NCBI GenBank assembly: GCA_964585475.1
Contig: CAZPDF010000005.1
Coordinates: forward strand, 3,323-67,322
Direction of reading: 5' to 3'
From: an uncultured Candidatus Saccharibacteria bacterium
GTDB lineage: Bacteria; Patescibacteriota; Minisyncoccia; Sungbacterales; HO2-52-23
Length of the DNA: 64,000 nt
The notes under the pieces are model-generated. The model was not told where the DNA came from. It searched no databases and was given only the letters and a program-made list of their open reading frames with translations. The position numbers were made by a program, and so were the translations under genes. Each line of letters opens with the position of its first letter. The first letter of the stretch is position 1. Shown in pieces: positions 3,263 through 59,972 of this stretch.

Positions 3263-3345
3263 ATACCCCCCATTTGGTGCTAAATTTTTAAGAACAGTAA
3301 AACTAAAATAGCATAATATAGATTATTCGTCAAGCCATTTTTCTA

Positions 3346-4383
3346 CTATATGAACGTGGCTCCTAAAAGATCAGGATGCCCCAGAAGAAATGCCTGTGTC
3401 TCTATACTCTTTTTCCCCTCAAGTTTGAGTTTTTTTACAAGAAGTCCTCCTTTGCCGCACTTTACGAGTATCACGTCTTTTTGCTCGCCCGAGATATAAC
3501 CCGGAGAGCCGGCCGGAATATCATCTCGAACCGTATCTGCCTCCTCGATCTTAATGCGGCAGATTTTTTCCCCAGATGGCCAGATGGTCCACGTTCCTGG
3601 CCACGGATTGAAAGCGCGAACCATCCGCTCGATTTCTTCTGCTGGCCGCGACCAATTAATTCTGCCGTCGTCTTTTTTAAGAATTTTGGAATAAGTCGCT
3701 TGGGAATCGTTTTGTGGTACCGGCGTAATCTCTCTCCTGATCCATTTTGGTAGCGTTTCAATTAAAAGCTCTGCCCCCAATTTCGCCAGCTCATCGTGTA
3801 GGGTTTTGTAATTTGTAATTTGTAATTTGTAATTTTCCAATTGTCGCCATGCGACAATTGGACCGTGATCCATCTGTTCATCCACTTTTATGATCGTTAC
3901 TCCGGTCTCCGTATCGCCTTTAAGAATGGTGTATTGAATCGGCGAAGGCCCGCGCCAACGAGGGAGGAGGGAGGGATGAATGTTCAAGAACCCGAGTTTC
4001 GGAATTTCTAGAATCTCTCTTAGAATAATTTTTCCGTAAGCCGCTACAATACAAAGATCCGGCTGAAGTTCTGAAAATTCTTTCGCAAAAAAAGGATTGG
4101 ATTTCAACGTTTCCGGCTGAAAAACCGGAATTTTACCCCGCACCTTTTCTGAACTGCGCTTCGCGCGAGAATCTACTGGTTCAGAAAAGGTGCGGGGTTT
4201 ATGTTTCTCGGCAAATACCTTCACCGGCGGGGGAGTGAGAATCTGTTTTCGGCCAACCGGCTCATCAGGATTTGTTACCACGGCAACAATGTTACAGCCA
4301 GCTTCAATAAGCGCCTCAAGCGAGGGAAGCGCAAATTCCGGCGTACCCCAGAAAATTATTTTAATTTCTTTTACCTGCGTCAT
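3346..4383 (-). CDS. fmt: methionyl-tRNA formyltransferase
   Basis: IIFWGTPEFA...VVTNPDEPVGRK, NIHPSLLPRWRGPSPIQ and the C-terminal domain are present. It is paired with def. It contains two unusual in-frame inserts (see repeats). Confidence 0.9.
   Translation of the reverse strand: MTQVKEIKIIFWGTPEFALPSLEALIEAGCNIVAVVTNPDEPVGRKQILTPPPVKVFAEKHKPRTFSEPVDSRAKRSSEKVRGKIPVFQPETLKSNPFFAKEFSELQPDLCIVAAYGKIILREILEIPKLGFLNIHPSLLPRWRGPSPIQYTILKGDTETGVTIIKVDEQMDHGPIVAWRQLENYKLQITNYKTLHDELAKLGAELLIETLPKWIRREITPVPQNDSQATYSKILKKDDGRINWSRPAEEIERMVRAFNPWPGTWTIWPSGEKICRIKIEEADTVRDDIPAGSPGYISGEQKDVILVKCGKGGLLVKKLKLEGKKSIETQAFLLGHPDLLGATFI
3804..3838. repeat. heptanucleotide microsatellite (ATTTGTA)x4-5 inside fmt coding region
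   Basis: The sequence ttttgta atttgta atttgta atttgta attt is seen directly. It encodes NYKLQITNYK in the Fmt interdomain linker. Confidence 0.8.
4135..4198. repeat. perfect 20-bp-arm palindromic element inserted in-frame in fmt
   Basis: The arms accccgcaccttttctgaac / gttcagaaaaggtgcggggt surround a 24-nt loop. The element encodes the extra segment SEPVDSRAKRSSEKVRGKIP, absent from typical Fmt. Confidence 0.8.
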
Positions 4384-4550
4384 GTGACACTTTTTATATT
4401 TCTTCCCAACAACGTTCTTACATTCTCAAGTATGTTGGTATGTTTTTATCTCCCATGACACATTTTATATTTCTTTCTGGACTATTCGCTTATTCGTACG
4501 AATAAGCGAATAGTCTCCCACATCGCATGACACTTTTTATATTTTTTTTC
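4381..4550. repeat. def-fmt intergenic array: three ~25-bp direct repeats (catgacacWttttatatttctt) at ~73-bp spacing plus a perfect 32-bp palindrome (4482-4513)
   Basis: Copies lie at about 4381, 4454 and 4526. The first contains the fmt ATG. The palindrome is ctattcgcttattcgta|cgaataagcgaatag. Confidence 0.7.
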
Positions 4551-4555
4551 GCCAA

Positions 4556-5137
4556 TCACTTTGTCATGGAACGGCTCTCGATTATTCTCTCCGCTTTATC
4601 TATAAAAAGCGTCCCGTCCAGATGATCCAGTTCGTGCTGCACCACCCGGGAAAAAAAACGCGAGGCGCCGCGGGTGAATTTTTTGCCATGCTCATCATAT
4701 GCCACCACCGTGATTTTTTCGTGCCGCTTTACGGAGCCGAATTTCCCCGGGACCGAAAGGCACCCTTCTGCTCCATCCAGTTTGTTTTTGGACATCTTTT
4801 TTATTGTGGGATTTATGAATACATAATATTTCCATTCCCGCATTTCATACGGTTTTTCATTCTTTTCCGAGATGTCATCCTCGCGTTTGCGCTTCCATCC
4901 TGCCTTCTCCGCCTTATCGATCTCTTCCGCTTCTTCGGAGATGATAAAGATGCGCAGGGATTCTCCTATCTGCGGCGCGGCAAGTCCTACCCCGTCAGGA
5001 GTAATTTTGAGCGTTTCTTTCATATTCGAAATCAACCTTCGTATTTTGGGAGTAGCAAGGTCTTTAATTTGGACCCCACGAGCGACTTGACGAAGTGTGG
5101 CCTGCGGAGTTTTAATTATGGATAGCACCCTGGACAT
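4556..5137 (-). CDS. def: peptide deformylase
   Basis: GVGLAAPQIG, EGCLSVPG and HELDHLDG metal-binding motifs are present. An acidic/basic insert of about 40 aa (EEAEEIDKAEKAGWKRKREDD...) is also present. Confidence 0.9.
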   Translation of the reverse strand: MSRVLSIIKTPQATLRQVARGVQIKDLATPKIRRLISNMKETLKITPDGVGLAAPQIGESLRIFIISEEAEEIDKAEKAGWKRKREDDISEKNEKPYEMREWKYYVFINPTIKKMSKNKLDGAEGCLSVPGKFGSVKRHEKITVVAYDEHGKKFTRGASRFFSRVVQHELDHLDGTLFIDKAERIIESRSMTK

Positions 5138-9373: not shown

Positions 9374-9480
9374 ACCCCGTTAGAGATGCGGAATGGAGTA
9401 ACACCGGTTATATGCATGTGGCTGCAGAGCGACTCTTATCCCTTACTTCAATCTGGAATAAATCTCTAACGGGGTTGACC
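9374..9480. repeat. ~107-bp inverted-repeat element with termini gaccccgttagagat / atctctaacggggttgacc
   Basis: Seen directly. It belongs to a CCCCGTTA-terminated IR family also present at 21274, 25126 and 58607. Confidence 0.7.
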
Positions 9481-20325: not shown

Positions 20326-21327
20326 ATGATAAAACCCGTCCTTCAATATCTAACCGATTTTCTTACCTTCTGCGAGGTTGAGAAAGGACTTACTCCGACC
20401 ACGGTCAAAAACTATGCCCGTTTCTTAAATAAATTTTTTATCTGGCTTGAGAAGAATAACTTGAGCAATCTTACTCCTGATAAACTTTCCGAGGATATAA
20501 TTTGGAAATATAGAGTTTGGCTTTCCCGCTTGCCCAACATGGTGCGCCATGCCTCCCGCGGGCTTAGTCCGTCCACCCAGTCGCGCTATCTAATTGCGCT
20601 ACGCGCCCTCCTGGCCTATTTCCACGAAAAAGATATACCATCTCTGCCTACCGAGAAGATCAAGCTGCCGAAAGACCGCGAACGGCAAGTCAAATTCTTG
20701 GATTTAGAACAAGTTGAAAAATTGCTTGTTTCACCCAATACCTCCACCCTTACCGGCATGCGGGACCGGGCGATACTTGAAACCTTGTTTAGTACCGGGG
20801 TTCGCGTATCTGAACTTATCTCCCTTGACCGGAAACATCTGGTTGGCTCCAAGGGCAAAAAAGATTTTGAAATGAGTGTGGTTGGCAAGGGCGGGTATAT
20901 CCGGACGATTTATTTTTCCGAAAGGGCCATCTTTTGGATACAAAAATACCTTGCGGCACGCAAGGATGAGGAGCAGGCTCTATTTATAAGAATTAGGGGC
21001 CCTAAAAATGCCTCCCCCACCAGATTAACGCCTCGGGGTATAGAGCTTATCGTAGAAAAATATGCCAAGTTGGCCGGCCTTTCCATTCTGGCTACGCCGC
21101 ATACACTGCGTCATAGTTTTGCCACGGATCTCTTGAATCAGGGAGTTGATTTGCGAACCGTGCAGGAATTCTTGGGGCACCGCAATATCGCAACTACTCA
21201 AGTGTATACGCATGTGACAAGTAGACGCCTTCGCGAAGTCCATCGCAAATATCACGGCGGGAAAATGCTTCATCCCGTTAGAGAAAAACACCGCAAACCA
21301 TTTTTGGTTTCAAATAATTTGATATAA
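20326..21327 (+). CDS. tyrosine-type site-specific recombinase (XerC/XerD/integrase family)
   Basis: N-terminal SAM-like domain. The catalytic R...HTLRHSFAT...GHRNIATTQVYTHV with Tyr is present. The C-terminal extension and stop are supplied by an IR element. Confidence 0.85.
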   Translation: MIKPVLQYLTDFLTFCEVEKGLTPTTVKNYARFLNKFFIWLEKNNLSNLTPDKLSEDIIWKYRVWLSRLPNMVRHASRGLSPSTQSRYLIALRALLAYFHEKDIPSLPTEKIKLPKDRERQVKFLDLEQVEKLLVSPNTSTLTGMRDRAILETLFSTGVRVSELISLDRKHLVGSKGKKDFEMSVVGKGGYIRTIYFSERAIFWIQKYLAARKDEEQALFIRIRGPKNASPTRLTPRGIELIVEKYAKLAGLSILATPHTLRHSFATDLLNQGVDLRTVQEFLGHRNIATTQVYTHVTSRRLREVHRKYHGGKMLHPVREKHRKPFLVSNNLI

Positions 21328-21375
21328 AACATCCCTTTAATCCTAAATTTGATTTGTCTGTTTTTCTCTAACGGG
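21274..21375. repeat. ~100-bp element with perfect 15-bp terminal IR cccgttagagaaaaa / tttttctctaacggg overlapping recombinase 3' end
   Basis: Seen directly. Arm 1 encodes the last residues and stop of the recombinase. Confidence 0.75.
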
Positions 21376-21392
21376 ATTCATAGCTGATTCCC

Positions 21393-23563: not shown

Positions 23564-23599
23564 TCACTAAAGTTTTGACGATCGTCAAAACTTTAGTGA
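23564..23599. repeat. perfect 36-bp palindrome tcactaaagttttgacga|tcgtcaaaactttagtga
   Basis: Seen directly between the terminator and the gltX 3' end. Confidence 0.8.
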
Positions 23600-25108: not shown

Positions 25109-25308
25109 GGGGAAAGAGCGGCCCGCCCCGTTAGATATTTGGTAAAACCAAAATCTAACGGGGTAAATGCAGTACCGATGTGCAGTGGGCCGGTTGGACT
25201 TGGAGCAATACGGCAACGAATGGTTGTGATTTCCTTCATGTCTTGAGCCTGATGAACAATAAGATTTCCGCGCATATCAGCGTTAAGCGGCATGGCAGGG
25301 AATAGCAA
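25105..25308 (-). other. upstream leader ORF duplicating the GltX N-terminus (..IRCRIAPSPTGPLHIGTA..), stop overlapping gltX ATG
   Basis: Tandem duplication of the gltX 5' end (25169-25239 against 25054-25108), separated by a ccccgttagat...atctaacgggg hairpin (25126-25163). The TGA stop overlaps the gltX ATG as ATGA. Confidence 0.5.
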
Positions 25309-30883: not shown

Positions 30884-32065
30884 TTAGCGCCCTATCAACG
30901 CAATGGCCATACCTATAATTGCGGCCACTACGCTAATCACCCAAAATCTCATCGTGACTTTATACGGAGGCCATCCCAGGGCCTCAAAATGATGATGGAG
31001 GGGCGCTATAAGAAACACCTTTTTTCCGCGAAAACGCTTGGATGCGAATTGGATGATGTCAGACACAACTTCAGCCATCAGTATAAGGCCAATAATGGGC
31101 AGAACCACGACCGAATCGGTAAGAAAGGCAACTACAGTGAGAGAGGTGGTAAGTCCGAGGATGCCCGATTCCCCCATATAGAAGCGGGCCGGAGGGATAT
31201 TGAACCAAAGAAAGGCAAGAATGGCTCCGAGAATGACGGCGGCAAATGCGGCCACATCAATCTGTCCTCTGAAAAATGCTATACCCGCATAGGCCGCAAA
31301 AGCGGAGGCAAAAACCCCGCCTGCCAAACCGTCAATGCCATCCACGATGCTGGAAGAAAAAAGCAGGATCATGGTGAATATAAAAAGCGGTATGTACCAA
31401 AGGCCTAGATAAAGATCTCCGAAGCCGGGGATATAAATGGCCCGCCAATCAAGCTTGAAATAAAACCACCAGGCGCCGGCAGCGGCAATGAGAAATACGA
31501 CCAAAAGCCGGTGGCGGAATTTTACCCCCCCACCTTCCTGGATGCCTTGCCTCCATGGCTTAAGAACGGCTAGGAGCTTGCGAGTAAAAGAAATTTTGGG
31601 TGTGACTTCGTTTGAAAAGGTGGGGGGGTTTATTCCCCCGGCAACATATCCGCCGCGTCCGTACACTTGCAAGAGATCGTCAACTAATCCTAAAACGGAA
31701 GCGGCGAGAAGTATAAATAACGGAAGCCATGTCTGATTTCTTGAAAGAAAATTTGCTTTATCCCAAAATGAACTATCGGTGGCGTAGGCCACAAGCCAGA
31801 TAATAAGCGCCAAGGCAATGGTGGTTGCCCAGATGAGCACCCCGCCCAGACGCGGCACGCTAACCTCGCGATCTTTATGCAGGGCCGCAAACAAAGGGGT
31901 TTGAGATCCGTCCGGAGACAGCGTACGCACTTCTTTCCGCCAGAGCTTATGGGTATAGAGAAATTTGGTAAGAAGCGGCGTCCAAAGAATGGCCAAGACG
32001 AAAGATACGGCGGAGAGGCCGAATACTTTGATGACGCTTACAATGTTGTTAACTTGGGACTCCAT
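30884..32065 (-). CDS. mraY: phospho-N-acetylmuramoyl-pentapeptide-transferase
   Basis: Polytopic with a DGIDGLAGG motif. The N-terminal region has the typical cytoplasmic loop. Confidence 0.9.
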   Translation of the reverse strand: MESQVNNIVSVIKVFGLSAVSFVLAILWTPLLTKFLYTHKLWRKEVRTLSPDGSQTPLFAALHKDREVSVPRLGGVLIWATTIALALIIWLVAYATDSSFWDKANFLSRNQTWLPLFILLAASVLGLVDDLLQVYGRGGYVAGGINPPTFSNEVTPKISFTRKLLAVLKPWRQGIQEGGGVKFRHRLLVVFLIAAAGAWWFYFKLDWRAIYIPGFGDLYLGLWYIPLFIFTMILLFSSSIVDGIDGLAGGVFASAFAAYAGIAFFRGQIDVAAFAAVILGAILAFLWFNIPPARFYMGESGILGLTTSLTVVAFLTDSVVVLPIIGLILMAEVVSDIIQFASKRFRGKKVFLIAPLHHHFEALGWPPYKVTMRFWVISVVAAIIGMAIALIGR

Positions 32066-33189: not shown

Positions 33190-33255
33190 GATTAGGCGTT
33201 CTCCTTATCTTTACCCGGTAGTAGTCGTCGACAACATTCGTCTTTTGTCGAGCAC

Positions 33256-33822
33256 TCAACGTATTGAGTGCTCGACAGTCGAAGAGTTACTACCGGGCTT
33301 AGTTTCAAATATTTCCATCTTTTCTTTTTCAAATTCGGTAAAATGCGGCAGTTCTTGAATGCGAGTAACCCCGAGATACTTCAAAAATTCGGCACCTACG
33401 CTATAAAGATACGACCGGGCGTCTTTGGGGTTATCTATCCGTTCCACCAGCCCCCGCATTAAAAGATTTCGAAGGGTAAAGGATGAATTAACGCCCCGGA
33501 TGTATTCAACCTCGGCTCGGGTCAGCGGCCCCTTATAAGCGATAATGCTCAAGGTCTCCAAAGCCGCTCGGGAAAGTTCTTCCGTAAACTCGTTTTTTAC
33601 GAGATCCTCCACATAGCGGGAATTTTCCGGACTTGAACCGAGCTGCCATTTGTCTTCATGGCGGATTAGCGTAAAACCGCGATTGGCATAGTCCCCGGCA
33701 AGTTCTTCAAGGGCGGAGACCACCTCTTCTTTTTTTGCTTTGGTGATTTTGGCAAGCTTTTCCAAAGCCAGCGCCTCCCCGTGGACGAAAAGAATTGTTT
33801 CGAGTATGGATTTAAGGGCCAT
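33256..33822 (-). CDS. scpB: segregation and condensation protein B
   Basis: ILETILFVHGEAL winged-helix signature in 188 aa, adjacent to scpA. Confidence 0.85.
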   Translation of the reverse strand: MALKSILETILFVHGEALALEKLAKITKAKKEEVVSALEELAGDYANRGFTLIRHEDKWQLGSSPENSRYVEDLVKNEFTEELSRAALETLSIIAYKGPLTRAEVEYIRGVNSSFTLRNLLMRGLVERIDNPKDARSYLYSVGAEFLKYLGVTRIQELPHFTEFEKEKMEIFETKPGSNSSTVEHSIR

Positions 33823-43885: not shown

Positions 43886-44146
43886 CCCGTTTTTTCCTTA
43901 AGCAGGTTATTTGATATTTTACGATATTTTCTGATATAATGCAATAGCAGGAAATTCGGGCCTATAGTTCCGACCTTCATTAAAGTTATATAGGAAGTCG
44001 AGAATCCACGATTTGACCAAATGAAGACTTGGTCAAATCGGGACTTAGTGGCAGTGTCCCGATTCAATTTTGATTGAATCGAGGATGCTCGATTTTCAAA
44101 GAAAATCGGCACATCCGGTTTGTTCACCCTCCCACCTTTTATGTTA

Positions 44147-44217
44147 GGGCTCATAGCTTAGTGGTAGAGCACCCGGTTTGCATCCGGGAGATCGGGGTTC
44201 GATTCCCCGTGAGTCCA
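44147..44217 (+). tRNA. tRNA-Ala (anticodon UGC)
   Basis: Acceptor gggctca/tgagtcc with a G3:U70 identity pair. Anticodon stem cccgg/ccggg with loop ttTGCat. T-arm cgggg-ttcgatt-ccccg. Discriminator A. Confidence 0.85.
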
Positions 44218-44342
44218 TTGGTAAAGGTGGGAGGGCAAGTCCGGTAGATGGGAGTTCCTCCGATTTTGTCTGCGGTATTACCGCAGCTACAAAATCGAGA
44301 GTCCTCGATGTGGTAAATCAAATCAAAGATTTGAACCACATC

Positions 44343-44362
44343 GGGAGATTCCCCGTAGGTCC
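44343..44362 (+). repeat. partial direct duplication of tRNA-Ala 3' end (gattccccgtaggtccat vs gattccccgtgagtccat)
   Basis: Seen directly 125 bp downstream of the tRNA. It is att-site-like. Confidence 0.6.
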
Positions 44363-44474
44363 ATCGAGCTAAGATTGAGGGGGGTTGTTACCAAGCCAAG
44401 CGTTCAGACAATCCAAAAAATCGTCAAGTCGTTAGGCGTTCCTATGGAGGATTTATTAAAATAATTTTTACAAT

Positions 44475-45410
44475 ATGAAAATAGAAATCTTTGAAGAAGA
44501 CGGCGACAATACACTCTCATTTGACGACAAGTACGCCGATTTTACAATTGACATATACTCTGATTCAAAAACCTATCAATCAAGAATGAACTTGAAGGAC
44601 GATGTCTATTATCGTACCGAAAAATTTGAGTATCGTATCAAAACTGACCCTTTGAAAGTAGAGACTAGATTAACCGAACGAGTAGATGAACCCCCAGAAA
44701 GATACTGTGTGAAAGACGGAGTTGTTTTAGAGTCAGATATTCTTGCTGATAGAAAGGAAATGGCTATGTCCTCAATGACTAAAGAGTTTATTGATGGTCT
44801 TAAAAAAGAAGTTGAATGGCACGAGGATTGGGTGGGCAATCCTGTCTCAATGTACATACTTTCTAAACATCCTGAAATAGTTACGCCAGACGATTATCGC
44901 CGAAACTTGCGACAATTGTCAGAAAAAATAAAGAACGCAACTCTCAAGGTAGAAAAAGCACTTGAGTCAGACAAAATGGGTTTGCAGGTAACGGATGAAT
45001 GGGTAGATTCAGGGCGAACAATCTGGCTTTCAAAATCAAAACAGGATGAGTTGTCGGAAGAGGAAGTCAAAAAAGCTATTGAGCATCAGCACAAACTCCA
45101 AGAACAATTTTTTGATGAGAAATCAAGTGAATATGTAGGCGTTTCTGAAGGTGAATTTAGGTCAAGTGTCGACATACTGGAAAATATTGAGACATTTCTA
45201 AACAAAAAGCCCGCCTCTGTAAAAAAAGAAGCTGACCAAAAAATCTCAAAAACGAAGGGGTATATTATCTCTGTACTTTTGACTCTATTTCTTTCATGGG
45301 TCATAAGTTGGTTTGTTGATATAAACCCATTTTTGATTTTTGTTATTGTGCAGGTTGTTGCGTTTGCACAAAGCATTATTGGAGGTTGGTTGGGTAAGTT
45401 TTTTGAATAA
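44475..45410 (+). CDS. hypothetical protein with two C-terminal transmembrane helices (AT-rich island gene 1)
   Basis: 311 aa, roughly 36% GC. A cytoplasmic domain precedes VLLTLFLSWVISWFV and LIFVIVQVVAFAQSIIGGWL. Confidence 0.4.
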   Translation: MKIEIFEEDGDNTLSFDDKYADFTIDIYSDSKTYQSRMNLKDDVYYRTEKFEYRIKTDPLKVETRLTERVDEPPERYCVKDGVVLESDILADRKEMAMSSMTKEFIDGLKKEVEWHEDWVGNPVSMYILSKHPEIVTPDDYRRNLRQLSEKIKNATLKVEKALESDKMGLQVTDEWVDSGRTIWLSKSKQDELSEEEVKKAIEHQHKLQEQFFDEKSSEYVGVSEGEFRSSVDILENIETFLNKKPASVKKEADQKISKTKGYIISVLLTLFLSWVISWFVDINPFLIFVIVQVVAFAQSIIGGWLGKFFE

Positions 45411-45425
45411 GTAAGATTATATTTT

Positions 45426-45875
45426 ATGAACCAAACAAAATCAATTTCATTTCAAGGACAGGAATACTTTGATGATAGACTGTATGTTTTATATTTGTGC
45501 AAAGGCACTGTTGAAATTGAACCTGATAGCGATGGGGCTGTTTGGACGAGAATTTATCACGAACAGGCACCAACCGATCACATTTGGTGCGTAGCAACAT
45601 ATAGAAATTGTAATCGTTATCCTTTATATCGAGTAGATAGTTTTTATAAAAAAGAAGATGCGGTATTGTATATGAAGAAAATTGAGCCAGAAACTCCCCT
45701 GATCAGTTTAAGTGGCAAGTCTCCACTCCACCCAGTTTCTTATGAAGAATATCTATCATGGAAAAAAGAAAATGATATTAAAGAATATGATTGGCAGTCG
45801 CTGTATTCGCCTGATGGGAAAAATGCTAGTGAATCTATAGGGCAAACAAAGGAACAATTTAAGGGGATAATGTAA
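45426..45875 (+). CDS. hypothetical protein (AT-rich island gene 2)
   Basis: 149-aa ORF. AT-rich. Confidence 0.35.
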   Translation: MNQTKSISFQGQEYFDDRLYVLYLCKGTVEIEPDSDGAVWTRIYHEQAPTDHIWCVATYRNCNRYPLYRVDSFYKKEDAVLYMKKIEPETPLISLSGKSPLHPVSYEEYLSWKKENDIKEYDWQSLYSPDGKNASESIGQTKEQFKGIM

Positions 45876-45916
45876 GAATCAACATTTGGTAAGGACTACC
45901 CTTACTAACCCAAAAA

Positions 45917-46435
45917 ATGAATAATCAAGAAAAACATAAATACGCCTACGCTCTTACGAGCGTAGCTTCTACCGGGCTTTCTTTTATAGAAAATTCTTTA
46001 TCGAGCATAATGAACGAAGCAACAGACATGGCTTATTTAAGATCATTCTACATTTTGTTGTCTTACAATTTTGAACTTGTTTTAAAATCAAGAGTAGTAA
46101 TGATAAAAAGTTTTTCTGACAAAAAATCTATAAATAATGAGTTAGGAAAATTAGGTCACGATATAACAAAAATAGGAAAAACTCTCGCCACCAATTTGGA
46201 AGAGTTAGGTGTAAAAGAAATAATCGAGAATGGGAGCCAATATAAAATTGTCACTACTGACAACAAGGAAATTTATATAGAAAACTTTACGAAAATTAGA
46301 TACGATTTTCTCGATGATGTGATGCGTAATGTAGACAATCAAGAACACACACGGATAAAAGAATATGCCGATATATTAGTTTCTATTTTGAGAAAGGCGA
46401 AACAGAAGAACGAGGAAGCAAAAAATCAACCGTAG
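45917..46435 (+). CDS. hypothetical protein with HEPN-like Rx6H motif (AT-rich island gene 3)
   Basis: 172 aa, predicted helical. MRNVDNQEHTR fits the HEPN Rx4-6H catalytic motif. Confidence 0.35.
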   Translation: MNNQEKHKYAYALTSVASTGLSFIENSLSSIMNEATDMAYLRSFYILLSYNFELVLKSRVVMIKSFSDKKSINNELGKLGHDITKIGKTLATNLEELGVKEIIENGSQYKIVTTDNKEIYIENFTKIRYDFLDDVMRNVDNQEHTRIKEYADILVSILRKAKQKNEEAKNQP

Positions 46436-46489
46436 TATCTAGCAAGAACAGTAGAGGGAGCAACCCACGCCGTTTTATAATTCCATCAA

Positions 46490-47686
46490 ATGATCAAATT
46501 TTTACTTAGCATCGGGATCATTATATTTTTACTGGGCGGCTCCTCTTTGTTGTGGTGGGACGAGACCGGTGTTGACGTAGACGAAACGGCGGGCATCGCT
46601 TCGCCTCCGTCTCAACCAAGAATCACCGAGCCGCCGTTGCCGGATGTTACAAAAAAACCAAATGATACCGTTGAGAAAGCTAAAATTCCGGAAAAGGTCA
46701 TAACGCCGGAGATTACGGCGAAGGCGACGTCAACTTCGGATGTTTTACGCTGTTTCGGATCCACGCCGGATCAATTTAAATGCTACCGCGAATATTACGG
46801 TGAACTTATTGCCAAAGATGGAGCCAAGCCCGCAATTATTGATATTAAAGGCAGGTACGCTGATTCGTTCGTGAAGTCCCAGTGCCATCAGCTCATGCAT
46901 ATTATTGGCCGCGCCTCGGCGGATAAATATAAAACCGTAGCTGAGGCGTTTCAAGAAGGCGATCCTTTTTGCTGGTCAGGATATTACCATGGAGTTATGG
47001 AAGGGGTAGCACTACACCTCGGGAGAGAAAAACTTGCGCAGTCTCTTGATATAATATGTGCAGGAATTCCCGGCAAAGAGCGATTCTCGTTTGATTATTA
47101 TAATTGTGTACACGGCTTGGGACATGGCATCATGGCGATTTTGAATGACGAGCTTATGGATACGCTCGCTATGTGCGATAATCTTAGCGGGTCTTGGGAG
47201 CAATCCTCATGCTGGAGCGGAGCGTTCATGGAAAATATAATAGCCAATGGCATAGACCACCGTTCAAAATACTTGAAAGATAACGACCCCCACTACCCCT
47301 GCGACGCCGTAGATGAAAAATATAAAGGCGTTTGCTATATTATGCAGACCTCGCGGATGTTGGCCCTGACCGGTTACGATTTTGTGAGAGTTTATGCGCT
47401 ATGTGCCGCAGCGGAGGAACCCTATATCAATATCTGCTATCAGAGTTTAGGTCGCGATGCGTCTGGCTCAACCGTAAGCGATGTAGAACGAACCAAGGCA
47501 TATTGTCTTCTTGGCAAAGACAACCGTCAGCAATCAAACTGCGTGATAGGGGCGGTAAAGGATTTCATATCCTACTTCCACTCGGATAAACAGGCGCGCG
47601 AATTTTGCTCCGCACTTCCGGAGGATCTTCAGTCGATCTGTACGTCAACAGCGGAGAGTTACTACCTCTCGTTCAGGCCGTCTTAA
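46490..47686 (+). CDS. hypothetical membrane-anchored Cys/His-rich protein
   Basis: N-terminal TM, more than 20 Cys, and a duplicated C.H...H..G segment (CHQLMHIIG / CVHGLGHGIM). Confidence 0.4.
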   Translation: MIKFLLSIGIIIFLLGGSSLLWWDETGVDVDETAGIASPPSQPRITEPPLPDVTKKPNDTVEKAKIPEKVITPEITAKATSTSDVLRCFGSTPDQFKCYREYYGELIAKDGAKPAIIDIKGRYADSFVKSQCHQLMHIIGRASADKYKTVAEAFQEGDPFCWSGYYHGVMEGVALHLGREKLAQSLDIICAGIPGKERFSFDYYNCVHGLGHGIMAILNDELMDTLAMCDNLSGSWEQSSCWSGAFMENIIANGIDHRSKYLKDNDPHYPCDAVDEKYKGVCYIMQTSRMLALTGYDFVRVYALCAAAEEPYINICYQSLGRDASGSTVSDVERTKAYCLLGKDNRQQSNCVIGAVKDFISYFHSDKQAREFCSALPEDLQSICTSTAESYYLSFRPS

Positions 47687-48219
47687 TCCTCGCGTCCTCC
47701 GATACGCCGGAGAATTATGAGTGCGGCCAGCGGCAGGATAAACCACCAGATATGAAGATTTGGATTGGCAAAAAGATTTTTTGTAAGCGGAGCAAGCATT
47801 TTTAATTTGTCCGGGGGCAGAAAGCCAACGAGGATATGAATTAGAAGCCCCACTTGCAGAAAGCTCAACAAAAAAACCTGCCACCACGAAGTTGAGAAAG
47901 CAATGCTTCTTTTGCGCCGTCCGCCAAGCATGAAGGCAAAAAAGAGAAGCAAGGCGATAAAACCCGCAATTTTTATAAGAAAGGCCTCGGCAAAATTGAG
48001 CGACTGCGTCCATCGGTCAACCGGAAGAGAAGAAAAAAGCGCGAAGGCGACATAGGTATACATTATTGATGCCGCAATCCTGACTTTTCCGGCACTTATG
48101 CCATAAAAAAATCCTCCGGCGATCAGGGCAAAAACAGAAATTATATCCCAAGTGGGATGTGAAAGAATTTGCTCGGCGGTGGTTTTAAAATATATAAGCT
48201 CCGTAGGCATTGTTTCCAT
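47683..48219 (-). CDS. hypothetical integral membrane protein
   Basis: 178 aa with about five TM helices. Confidence 0.4.
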   Translation of the reverse strand: METMPTELIYFKTTAEQILSHPTWDIISVFALIAGGFFYGISAGKVRIAASIMYTYVAFALFSSLPVDRWTQSLNFAEAFLIKIAGFIALLLFFAFMLGGRRKRSIAFSTSWWQVFLLSFLQVGLLIHILVGFLPPDKLKMLAPLTKNLFANPNLHIWWFILPLAALIILRRIGGRED

Positions 48220-57327: not shown

Positions 57328-57457
57328 AAAACGTGCGGCCAAGAAAAAGCGTAGAAAGTACCCCATAAGCGGGCATTCGGTTTTTCTCATTCAAAAACTG
57401 CAACACAAAACGCGTCGGTGATCACCGACGCGTTTTGTAAAGTTTTATGGTTTAATG

Positions 57458-59926: not shown

Positions 59927-59972
59927 AAAAGAATCCTAGTCAGAATCCTAGGATTCTGACTAGGATTCTTTT
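59927..59972. repeat. perfect 46-bp palindrome aaaagaatcctagtcagaatccta|ggattctgactaggattctttt
   Basis: Seen directly, immediately 3' of the dnaK stop. It may act as a bidirectional terminator or attenuator. Confidence 0.8.

Follow-up and report, generated by a model that had tools for sequence, protein, structure and literature searches.

In a 64,000-nucleotide stretch of the metagenome-assembled contig CAZPDF010000005.1 (forward strand, positions 3,323 to 67,322; hereafter, the window), the fmt gene, coding for methionyl-tRNA formyltransferase, carries a perfect hairpin that, on comparison with related genes, is a real mobile DNA element inserted in frame and not a native linker. We consider it very likely that this hairpin is a 62-bp non-coding derivative, resembling a miniature inverted-repeat transposable element (MITE), of an approximately 300-bp mobile element that encodes only a GIY-YIG nuclease. 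A hairpin element in fmt had been predicted earlier from the letters of the window alone (hereafter, the original prediction). Membership of a family that crosses phyla and the existence of longer relatives encoding a GIY-YIG protein, both of which emerge from sequence comparison, are additions to what had been proposed.

An in-frame hairpin insertion in fmt

The product of the window's fmt gene (345 amino acids, aa) matches at 100% the database protein P0001, in which both Pfam domains PF00551 and PF02911 are present. Its top protein matches are Fmt proteins of Candidatus Sungbacteria (candidate phyla radiation [CPR]/Parcubacteria), which usually measure 316 to 322 aa versus the 345 aa found here, and matches to PDB entries extend down to E 1e-60. 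As originally described, two arms of 20 nucleotides (nt), 100% complementary to each other, enclose 24 nt at positions 4135 to 4198 (Table 1). Allowing up to three mismatches, the arm occurs at only two places in the window, i.e., in the hairpin itself, with 0.01 matches expected and none of 100 shuffles giving two; the window thus has no identical further copy, but many related copies exist in other genomes. Folding of a 116-nt stretch of the fmt mRNA gave −51.6 kcal/mol, against −27 ± 3.5 kcal/mol for shuffled sequences (z = −7.05).

Comparison of occupied with empty sites set the boundaries of the insertion. The filled fmt site reads, on the coding strand, CA-TAAA-(62 bp)-TAAA-ATT, and four orthologues have a single TAAA in the corresponding position (CAT AAA ATT in three, TAT AAA ATT in one), the precise empty-site sequence for fmt being GAGAAACATAAAATTCCGGTT. 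Because the empty orthologous sites hold a single TAAA, the event lengthened the gene by 66 bp (22 codons), made up of 62 bp of new sequence and 4 bp of duplicated target; thus, the hairpin originally reported as a 64-bp element is real, but the inserted unit is a 62-bp core accompanied by the duplication. The insert retains the reading frame (net +66 nt) and adds the basic peptide KPRTFSEPVDSRAKRSSEKVRG, as predicted, between AEKH and KIPVFQP. In a 32-sequence alignment, 29 of the 31 relatives have nothing at this position, and the solved Fmt structures 4iqf and 1fmt show a clean 22-residue gap between AEKHG and IPVLQP. The expectation that Fmt homologues are contiguous at this site was therefore correct, and the segment is lineage-specific, with close orthologues displaying the empty target site. 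A smaller hairpin said to precede the element is also real, but it consists of native codons that are likewise present in orthologues without the insert, and it lies outside the inserted DNA.

A separate ENA assembly (L123, a 9.7-kb contig) contains an identical fmt gene, hairpin included, and for this reason an assembly artefact is unlikely. More generally, the proposal that the segment is either such an artefact or an ordinary lineage-specific linker with chance symmetry can draw on the metagenomic origin of the contig and on nothing else, and we give it next to no credence in view of the chance expectation of 0.01 for the arm pair, the identical independent assembly, the orthologues with an empty site, and the more than 120 related copies in a family that makes target duplications.

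Since 62 + 4 = 66 bp and no stop codon interrupts the fmt frame through the insert, translation is the most likely fate of the insert. Its 22 residues would give the N-terminal domain a basic, disordered loop that joins helix alpha2 to strand beta3. In the predicted structure, the insert forms a coil of low confidence (predicted local distance difference test [pLDDT] score, 47 to 58) between helix 53-60 and the IPVFQP strand. The catalytic residues N134, H136, and D172 are invariant across the alignment and, by general Rossmann-fold topology, the insert sits on the opposite face. The open frame, the low-confidence coil, and its location opposite intact catalytic residues together suggest that the modified Fmt probably still works and that the insert is tolerated.

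Table 1. Positions of the fmt insertion and of related elements in the window
Feature	Position	Strand	Basis
fmt, methionyl-tRNA formyltransferase, 345 aa, host of the insertion	3346..4383	-	Open reading frame (ORF) list
Small hairpin ttccgg...ccggaa in native fmt codons IPVFQPE, outside the element	4111..4130	+	Motif in all homologues
Target-site duplication, copy 1, TTTA (TAAA on coding strand)	4132..4135	+	Orthologues with a single TAAA
Left arm ACCCCGCACCTTTTCTGAAC, 20 nt; first base is part of the duplicated tetranucleotide	4135..4154	+	
62-bp element core CCCCGCACC...GGTGCGGGG	4136..4197	- (sense for fmt and for the putative parent GIY-YIG gene)	Filled versus empty sites
Inner mini-hairpin GCGC-TTC-GCGC beside one arm	4156..4166	+	Folds; covariation; comparison with L133/L136
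Right arm GTTCAGAAAAGGTGCGGGGT, 20 nt; last base is part of the duplicated tetranucleotide	4179..4198	+	
Target-site duplication, copy 2, TTTA	4198..4201	+	
Superfamily member, CCCCGTTAGAG subfamily, 100 bp, intergenic, flanks CTGA/TTGA	9375..9474		
Superfamily member (TCCCGTTAGAG..., CCCCGTTAGAG-type), 104 bp, flanks TTCA/TTCA	21273..21376		
Superfamily member (CCCCGTTAGAT...), 38 bp, without flanking repeat, shortly before the probable start of gltX	25126..25163		
Second in-frame member, 104 bp, in mraY (30884-32065), termini CCCCCCCACCTT/AAGGTGGGGGGG	31525..31628	-	
Superfamily member (CCCCGTTACAAC...), 103 bp, intergenic beside dnaJ, flanks TGAA/TGAA	58609..58711		

Two further stretches in and beside fmt are repetitive. 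At 3805-3862, the heptamer GTAATTT occurs four times in tandem, encoding NYKLQITNYK, and is adjoined by a palindrome with 12-nt arms (3836-3862), the second arm of which is an inverted copy of native PIVA codons. This part of Fmt is hypervariable in relatives, which have similar peptides (NYKSQITSYK, NDKLQMT), and an NDKLQMT-like stretch is also found in the DNA ligase LigA of locus L060. The spacer between fmt and def (4380-4548) comprises three tandem units of ~72 nt, each opening with a 26-nt box that holds an fmt-type start context (TATAAAAAGTGTCAC-ATG, minus strand) and continuing with a hairpin that differs from unit to unit; one of these is a perfect palindrome of 36 bp (4480-4515).

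Longer relatives with the same ends encode a GIY-YIG nuclease

We scanned JGI metagenomes with the 19-nt arm of the fmt hairpin and obtained two more elements bearing fmt-type arms at both ends, of 129 bp and 295 bp. The latter (L133) has identical 19- to 20-nt arms, is flanked by TCAA/TCAA, and encodes a single 90-aa protein with a GIY-YIG domain (PF01541, E 1.6e-15). The fmt element is identical to L133 over its left 20 nt and its right 24 nt, and this identity at both ends marks it as an internal-deletion derivative. In L133, the C terminus of the protein (...RSLRSSEKVR) is encoded by the terminal repeat, and this peptide recurs in the Fmt insert as ...KRSSEKVRGK. The mini-hairpin at 4156-4166 has its counterpart in a subterminal hairpin that, in the coding relatives, occupies the 3′ end of the nuclease ORF.

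Homologues of the L133 protein led to three more loci (L136/L134, L141, and L142). In L136, L141, and L142, the layout is TTGA/CCCCGCACCTTT.../ATG...ORF.../...AAAGGTGCGGGG/TTGA, the ORF starting 0 to 11 nt after the left repeat and ending at a TGA stop that the duplicated target, TTGA, provides. Four other repeat-flanked GIY-YIG mini-genes, with other terminal subfamilies, were present among the fetched loci (L053, L086, L045, and L048). In these eight coding relatives, which represent at least four terminal-repeat subfamilies, the GIY-YIG gene is the sole ORF between the repeats. Four of the element proteins were scanned directly and matched Pfam GIY-YIG at E 1e-12 to 1e-15; for the others we relied on precomputed PF01541 annotation or, for L048, on a tblastn match. 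Full-length relatives measure ~250 to 390 bp and have a 16- to 20-bp terminal inverted repeat opening with CCCCGCACC, a TNNA tetranucleotide duplicated outside both ends (junction TNNA/CCCCGCACCTTTTCTGAAC), and one gene for a ~90-aa nuclease, which starts a few bases past the left repeat and reads through the right one.

A HMMER search of 1.84 billion representative sequences with the nuclease returned 4,659 clusters (50% identity) at E ≤ 0.001. Among the matches listed, most top hits are 80 to 125 aa long, and one-fifth of the small top hits either have an extended N terminus with repeat-encoded peptides or finish with ...GAG or ...KVRG; proteins with such endings are consistent with a stop codon that is likewise drawn from the target repeat. 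The nuclease model (pLDDT 90) is a bare catalytic core with one basic helix. Among solved structures it most resembles UPF0213 and the Slx1 nuclease domain (template-modeling score ~0.6, ~30% identity), with I-TevI and UvrC ranking behind them.

The ends of the elements also recall a known transposon group. The piggyBac elements use a TTAA target and have CCC...GGG ends, and IS1380 elements make 4- to 5-bp duplications. The T..A-type 4-bp duplication and the CC...GG termini of the present family agree with these traits, as a resemblance only; no DDE transposase lies between the repeats, the eight coding relatives having a GIY-YIG gene instead, and none lies near copies. These elements might therefore be ordinary MITEs moved in trans by a DDE transposase (e.g., of the IS1380/piggyBac type), with the GIY-YIG gene a passenger or an independent selfish gene. 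That reading gains from the combination of CCC...GGG termini with an exact 4-bp TNNA duplication, from the established pairing of IS1380 with piggyBac (PMC5718144), and from the absence of a GIY-YIG gene in the window. We nonetheless consider it unlikely, as (i) the only ORF in coding relatives from at least four subfamilies is the GIY-YIG gene, which runs into the repeat itself; (ii) no transposase recurs in the ~800 kb around 120 copies, where clustering of ORFs of at least 250 aa yielded housekeeping families only; and (iii) repeat pairs more than 1 kb apart proved to be pairs of separate small elements, with no larger coding element bracketed. Likewise, no transposase was detected among ten window ORFs of unclear function. 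A similarity to IS5 terminal repeats (GGAAGGTGCG) was rejected, because the reading direction relative to the duplication is opposite.

A family of hairpins across phyla

A scan with the pattern CCCCGCACCTT-N(10-40)-AAGGTGCGGGG, covering one genome per species, found at least 120 loci with the family termini, versus ~2 expected by chance according to our own estimate. These loci belong to many Patescibacteria lineages, Omnitrophota, Planctomycetota, Chloroflexota, and some metagenome-assembled genomes (MAGs) labeled Gammaproteobacteria. Copies conforming to the scan pattern are 32 to 62 bp long, and longer copies of 70 to 300 bp were also found. Of 124 copies, 46 have the same 4-mer on both outer flanks and 14 more agree there at three of four bases, compared with one to three copies at other offsets, and all 46 exact duplications are T-N-N-A (TTTA, TGAA, TTGA, TCAA, TTCA, TAAA). 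Other terminal subfamilies (CCCCGTTAGAG..., CCCCGCACTAAA..., CCCCGCCC...) have the same layout. We rejected both an extended target consensus, since only the T and A of TNNA are fixed, and a palindromic target, since reconstructed empty sites are self-complementary at 6.65 of 24 positions, no more than by chance.

The 62-nt class, represented by nine copies from different genomes, consists of 12 to 13 invariant terminal pairs, 6 to 7 varying but complementary pairs, a 4-bp mini-hairpin beside one arm, and ~11 unpaired bases. In these nine copies, which were picked by eye, 95.6% of the cells pair, as opposed to 84% in shuffles and 35 to 53% when the partners are slid; nine pairs are altered on both sides, a level that none of 500 shuffles reaches. 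The mini-hairpin is itself retained with compensatory changes, two of its four pairs being altered on both sides. Conservation of pairing could alternatively denote a functional cis-acting RNA in the fmt mRNA, such as a ribosome pause or an RNase III site regulating Fmt, which would suit the very stable fold (z = −7), the perfect arms, and a structure upheld across copies by compensatory changes. Yet copies of the element are found in either orientation and in every frame, both between genes and inside many unrelated genes of many phyla, most Fmt genes lack the hairpin, and the covariation is explained equally well by a need for matching terminal repeats. Nor does the hairpin match an Rfam family: a scan of 3300-4700 (E up to 10) gave only generic miRNA-precursor-like hairpins, far below threshold. 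We accordingly rate regulation by such an RNA as very unlikely.

Several other searches were negative. Among 2.9 million viral contigs, a single match was obtained, leaving phage transport unsupported; no rRNA genes were found near copies in the fetched loci using conserved probes; and a doubled 46-aa query of the insert peptide, run against a large protein collection, returned no candidate sharing words with it. As to the setting of the copies, many of those in Omnitrophota and Planctomycetota loci (e.g., L055, L065, L069, L076, L099, L104, and L115) lie between ...GCGAATTNA and TNAATTCGC..., and thus at the center of another palindromic repeat, and in the Gammaproteobacteria-labeled MAG CAZXUX01 and the Chloroflexota MAG JACRLC01 the hairpin is the core of longer repeated units.

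Insertions within genes

About one-fifth of the family copies lie within long open frames. The Pfam domains that flank or surround in-frame inserts are those of NAD-dependent DNA ligase (LigA), CobB, MoaA, lipoate-protein ligase (LplA), the DNA polymerase III delta′ subunit (HolB), a radical-SAM activase, and IspE, with the IspE insert occurring in two genomes at an orthologous position. Copies within genes use all three frames and both orientations (giving peptide types PRTF...KVRG, PAPF...RCGV, and PHL...GAG), and hence no particular peptide is selected. In all validated cases inside genes, the added length is divisible by three and no stop codon enters the host frame. The element length plus 4 is divisible by three in 63 of 126 copies, against an expected one-third, though these copies do not count as independent. 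Each dominant size class (62, 47, 41, 32, and 59 bp; L001-L122 plus the window) is of the form 3n+2. We regard this excess as suggestive only of a frame-keeping bias. Taken with the stop codon that L136, L141, and L142 obtain from the target duplication, the 63 frame-keeping copies suggest an adaptation to coding DNA.

By alignment, Fmt genes of Candidatus Sungbacteria have been hit repeatedly and independently. Four Fmt genes carry inserts, all adding multiples of three bases: (i) the window gene (P0001), with 62 bp flanked by TAAA/TAAA between AEKH and IPVFQP; (ii) P0004, with 32 bp (KPRTFPSRKVRG) at exactly the same site; (iii) P0047, with a member of the same 62-bp subfamily (KPRTLSEQEKVDAKRSSEKVRG) in a loop of the C-terminal domain and an empty site at the position used in the window; and (iv) P0049, with 26 bp (CCCCGCCC...GGGCGGGG) flanked by TTAA/TTAA at a third site. 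P0001 and P0004 fall in different clades of a quick neighbor-joining tree; the nearest relative of P0004 (P0017, 77.6% identity) has no insert, and the nearest relatives of the window Fmt (P0002, P0003, and P0005) have none at the insert site. A 41-aa insert in the Fmt of P0003 was rejected as a family member. In an unbiased DNA scan, L090 (1632-1693) and L107 (~3671) likewise proved to have a family member close to fmt, either at its 3′ end or immediately upstream; two such copies compare with a roughly estimated ~0.6 expected, and chance or a preference for def-fmt are both possible.

The window contains a second in-frame member, in mraY, which adds 36 codons just after the catalytic DD region and is flanked by TAAA/TAAA (31629-31632 and 31521-31524). 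Its termini show a G-to-C change that is compensated in both arms, and its target (AATAAAATTCCG) agrees with that of fmt (CATAAAATTCCG) at 11 of 12 bases. Alignment of MraY with solved structures gave no clean gap around the insert.

Inserts of this kind might also escape translation, being cut from the mRNA or skipped by the ribosome in the manner of T4 gene 60 or mitochondrial "byp" elements, with AAA codons serving as take-off and landing sites. The duplication does place identical AAA codons on either side, and a strong hairpin follows the first. However, bypassing requires neither the multiples of three nor the stop-free frames seen in all validated intragenic copies, no stop codon follows the take-off codon, and in silico excision of each element produced no validated split gene, the sole candidate checked (L040) being two separate genes. 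We deem this reading highly improbable; the two outcomes predict different peptides, in that a translated insert spans KPRTFSEPVDSR and bypass or removal would join the protein as AEKHKIPVFQPE.

Proposed origin and mobility of the fmt element

In the model that we favor, the fmt hairpin is a MITE-like derivative of the GIY-YIG element. This copy, which has lost the gene and keeps both terminal repeats and the subterminal mini-hairpin, entered a TAAA within the fmt codons His-Lys-Ile, duplicating the tetranucleotide. The nuclease would have been supplied in trans by a coding copy elsewhere in the genome, and would recognize either the terminal repeats or the hairpin or cruciform that they form. 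Cleavage at the TNNA junction through staggered cuts, followed by host repair, could then yield both duplication and insertion, and the identical direct repeats would also permit precise excision. That the GIY-YIG protein drives mobility, and the geometry of the cleavage, are steps that we infer.

Several points weigh against this model. To our knowledge, a transposase role for a GIY-YIG protein would be without biochemical precedent. No small GIY-YIG gene was found in the window or in the fetched Sungbacteria loci, so that a source acting in trans was not seen here, and the exact fmt subfamily has one copy in the 64 kb. About half of the family copies have neither perfect nor near-perfect flanking repeats, the nine covariation sequences were chosen for the very architecture they illustrate, and the taxonomic breadth of the family derives from MAG labels, which are open to mis-binning. 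Translation of the insert and retention of Fmt function are likewise matters that we infer. Finally, in L086 (2219-2607) the GIY-YIG gene lies between two direct copies of a complete 51-nt hairpin, one of which, as a whole, encodes the C terminus of the ORF; the architecture is thus not uniform, and this arrangement falls outside a simple inverted-repeat model.

Comparison with known systems

Rickettsia palindromic elements (RPEs; Ogata et al. 2000), as summarized in PMC10969869, are palindromic selfish DNA inserted in frame. The original prediction had drawn a parallel with them, and the parallel holds for the fmt element as an in-frame palindromic insertion in a conserved part of Fmt. Like RPEs, the present elements exist in many copies, occur in frame in unrelated and often essential genes as well as between genes, and add peptides at fold-compatible positions; the fmt element is likewise an in-frame insertion, most likely tolerated on the protein surface. 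They differ in their hosts (CPR, Omnitrophota, and others versus Rickettsia), in their size (26 to 104 bp versus ~100 to 150 bp), and in having a 4-bp TNNA duplication, defined terminal repeats, and GIY-YIG-coding relatives. Given its different lineage and length, the fmt element is best classed as an analogue of RPEs rather than placed in RPE families 1 to 10. For RPEs, we know of no mobilizing gene.

Bacterial MITEs (Correia, ERIC, QMITE, Nezha, and others) are reviewed in PMC10969869. The present family shares with them a small size, lack of coding capacity, terminal inverted repeats, target duplication, dispersal, occasional in-frame location within ORFs, and derivation from a longer coding element with the same ends. 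The fmt element, for its part, is 62 bp long and open only within the fmt frame, has 19- to 20-nt terminal arms, a target duplication with an empty site in relatives, multiple dispersed copies, and a longer element with the same ends (L133 and, likewise, L136, L141, and L142). The differences lie in the parent, which has a ~90-aa Slx1/UPF0213-type nuclease in an entire "autonomous" unit of ~300 bp and no DDE, HUH, serine, or tyrosine transposase, and in the 11 to 13 terminal bases that are common to several phyla. Because the parent contains no recognized transposase, the term MITE applies in a structural sense only. Two other classes of short repeats do not fit. REP/REPIN elements make no target duplication, have a conserved 5′ GTAG-type tetranucleotide, and are associated with a RAYT gene, whereas here variable exact TNNA duplications are present and no neighboring gene recurs. 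IS200/IS605-derived palindromic elements (PATEs) have subterminal, non-identical hairpins and insert 3′ of a fixed tetra- or pentanucleotide without duplicating it, whereas here the repeats are terminal and mutually complementary with identical variable 4-mers on both sides.

The coding relatives share with homing endonucleases, whether free-standing or carried by introns (I-TevI, Seg proteins), a GIY-YIG catalytic domain, which in both cases is that of the sole gene of a selfish element, the gene having been lost from the window element. Homing endonucleases, however, have extra DNA-binding domains, recognize long allelic sites, and depend on double-strand-break repair into the same locus, with no terminal inverted repeats or target duplication; the present elements have both, and occupy unrelated TNNA positions that share only the T..A. 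An intron, intervening sequence, or intein is likewise not indicated, as there is no Rfam match above threshold and the insert is 62 nt, or 22 aa, without intein motifs. In solved fold and in sequence alike, the protein encoded by the elements comes closest to Slx1 and UPF0213 (YhbQ-like). Slx1 cuts branched DNA, which fits an element able to form a hairpin or cruciform; it requires Slx4 and has a RING domain, and the UPF0213 proteins of model bacteria are products of single-copy host genes of unknown role. We know of neither as repeat-bracketed or mobile. Fungal mitochondrial GC clusters, double-hairpin elements, and "byp" elements are also tiny, GC-rich, palindromic mobile inserts with short flanking repeats within protein genes; they are organellar, some are bypassed in translation, and they are not known to hold a nuclease gene within their repeats.

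A 2024 survey of CPR rRNA genes (PMC11270868) notes, "outside the context of homing," GIY-YIG ORFs that are carried by insertions other than introns, and it lists many uncharacterized inserts shorter than 200 bp. The paper makes no mention of inverted repeats, and we found no account in it of target duplications or of insertions in protein genes. These non-intron insertions may belong to the same element family. In full-text literature searches of incomplete coverage, we found no account of the present repeats or of MITEs in these phyla, as the original prediction had supposed for this lineage, and no description of GIY-YIG genes in prokaryotes that are accompanied by inverted repeats and duplications; both the family and the parent element appear to be new and undescribed.

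We put forward tentatively, as a possibility on which we would not yet rely, that they constitute a new class of prokaryotic transposable element, i.e., a ~300-bp unit with YCCCG... repeats and TNNA duplications, whose only gene codes for a Slx1/UPF0213-type GIY-YIG nuclease and which would be moved by this structure-specific nuclease instead of a DDE or HUH transposase or a recombinase, giving rise to hairpin derivatives preferentially of 3n+2 length in essential genes across CPR, Omnitrophota, Planctomycetota, and other phyla. Such a class could explain many small genes annotated as "GIY-YIG nuclease family," as well as the short non-intron insertions in CPR rRNA genes. If the nuclease does move the element, this would be a new enzymatic route to cut-and-paste mobility, and the small GIY-YIG proteins, a large family (the 4,659 clusters above), would thereby acquire a function. 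The hairpins are linked to a testable protein, a ~90-aa Slx1-like GIY-YIG nuclease between the same repeats. In-frame palindromic selfish DNA in essential genes, known chiefly from Rickettsia, is found in streamlined CPR and other uncultivated phyla as well, and such inserts can distort gene calls, protein lengths, and alignments in those genomes.

Other features of the window

Six superfamily members are present in the window, four of them with perfect flanking repeats, whereas shuffles yielded 0.65 hits and none with repeats. A XerC/D-like integrase ORF (20326-21327) ends within the member at 21273-21376, from which it draws its final 17 codons and its stop; the element has rewritten the C terminus of that protein. 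A low-GC stretch (0.39) at 44000-48000 directly follows tRNA-Ala (44147-44217); three plus-strand ORFs within it (44475-45410, 45917-46435, and 46490-47686) have no Pfam match, and the stretch may be an integrated element. Further perfect intergenic palindromes are located at 59927-59972 (46 bp), 57405-57438 (34 bp), 23564-23599 (36 bp), and 33246-33277 (arms of 14 + 14 nt), the last of which (GAGCACTCAA...TTGAGTGCTC) we take to resemble a CIRCE-type heat-shock operator.

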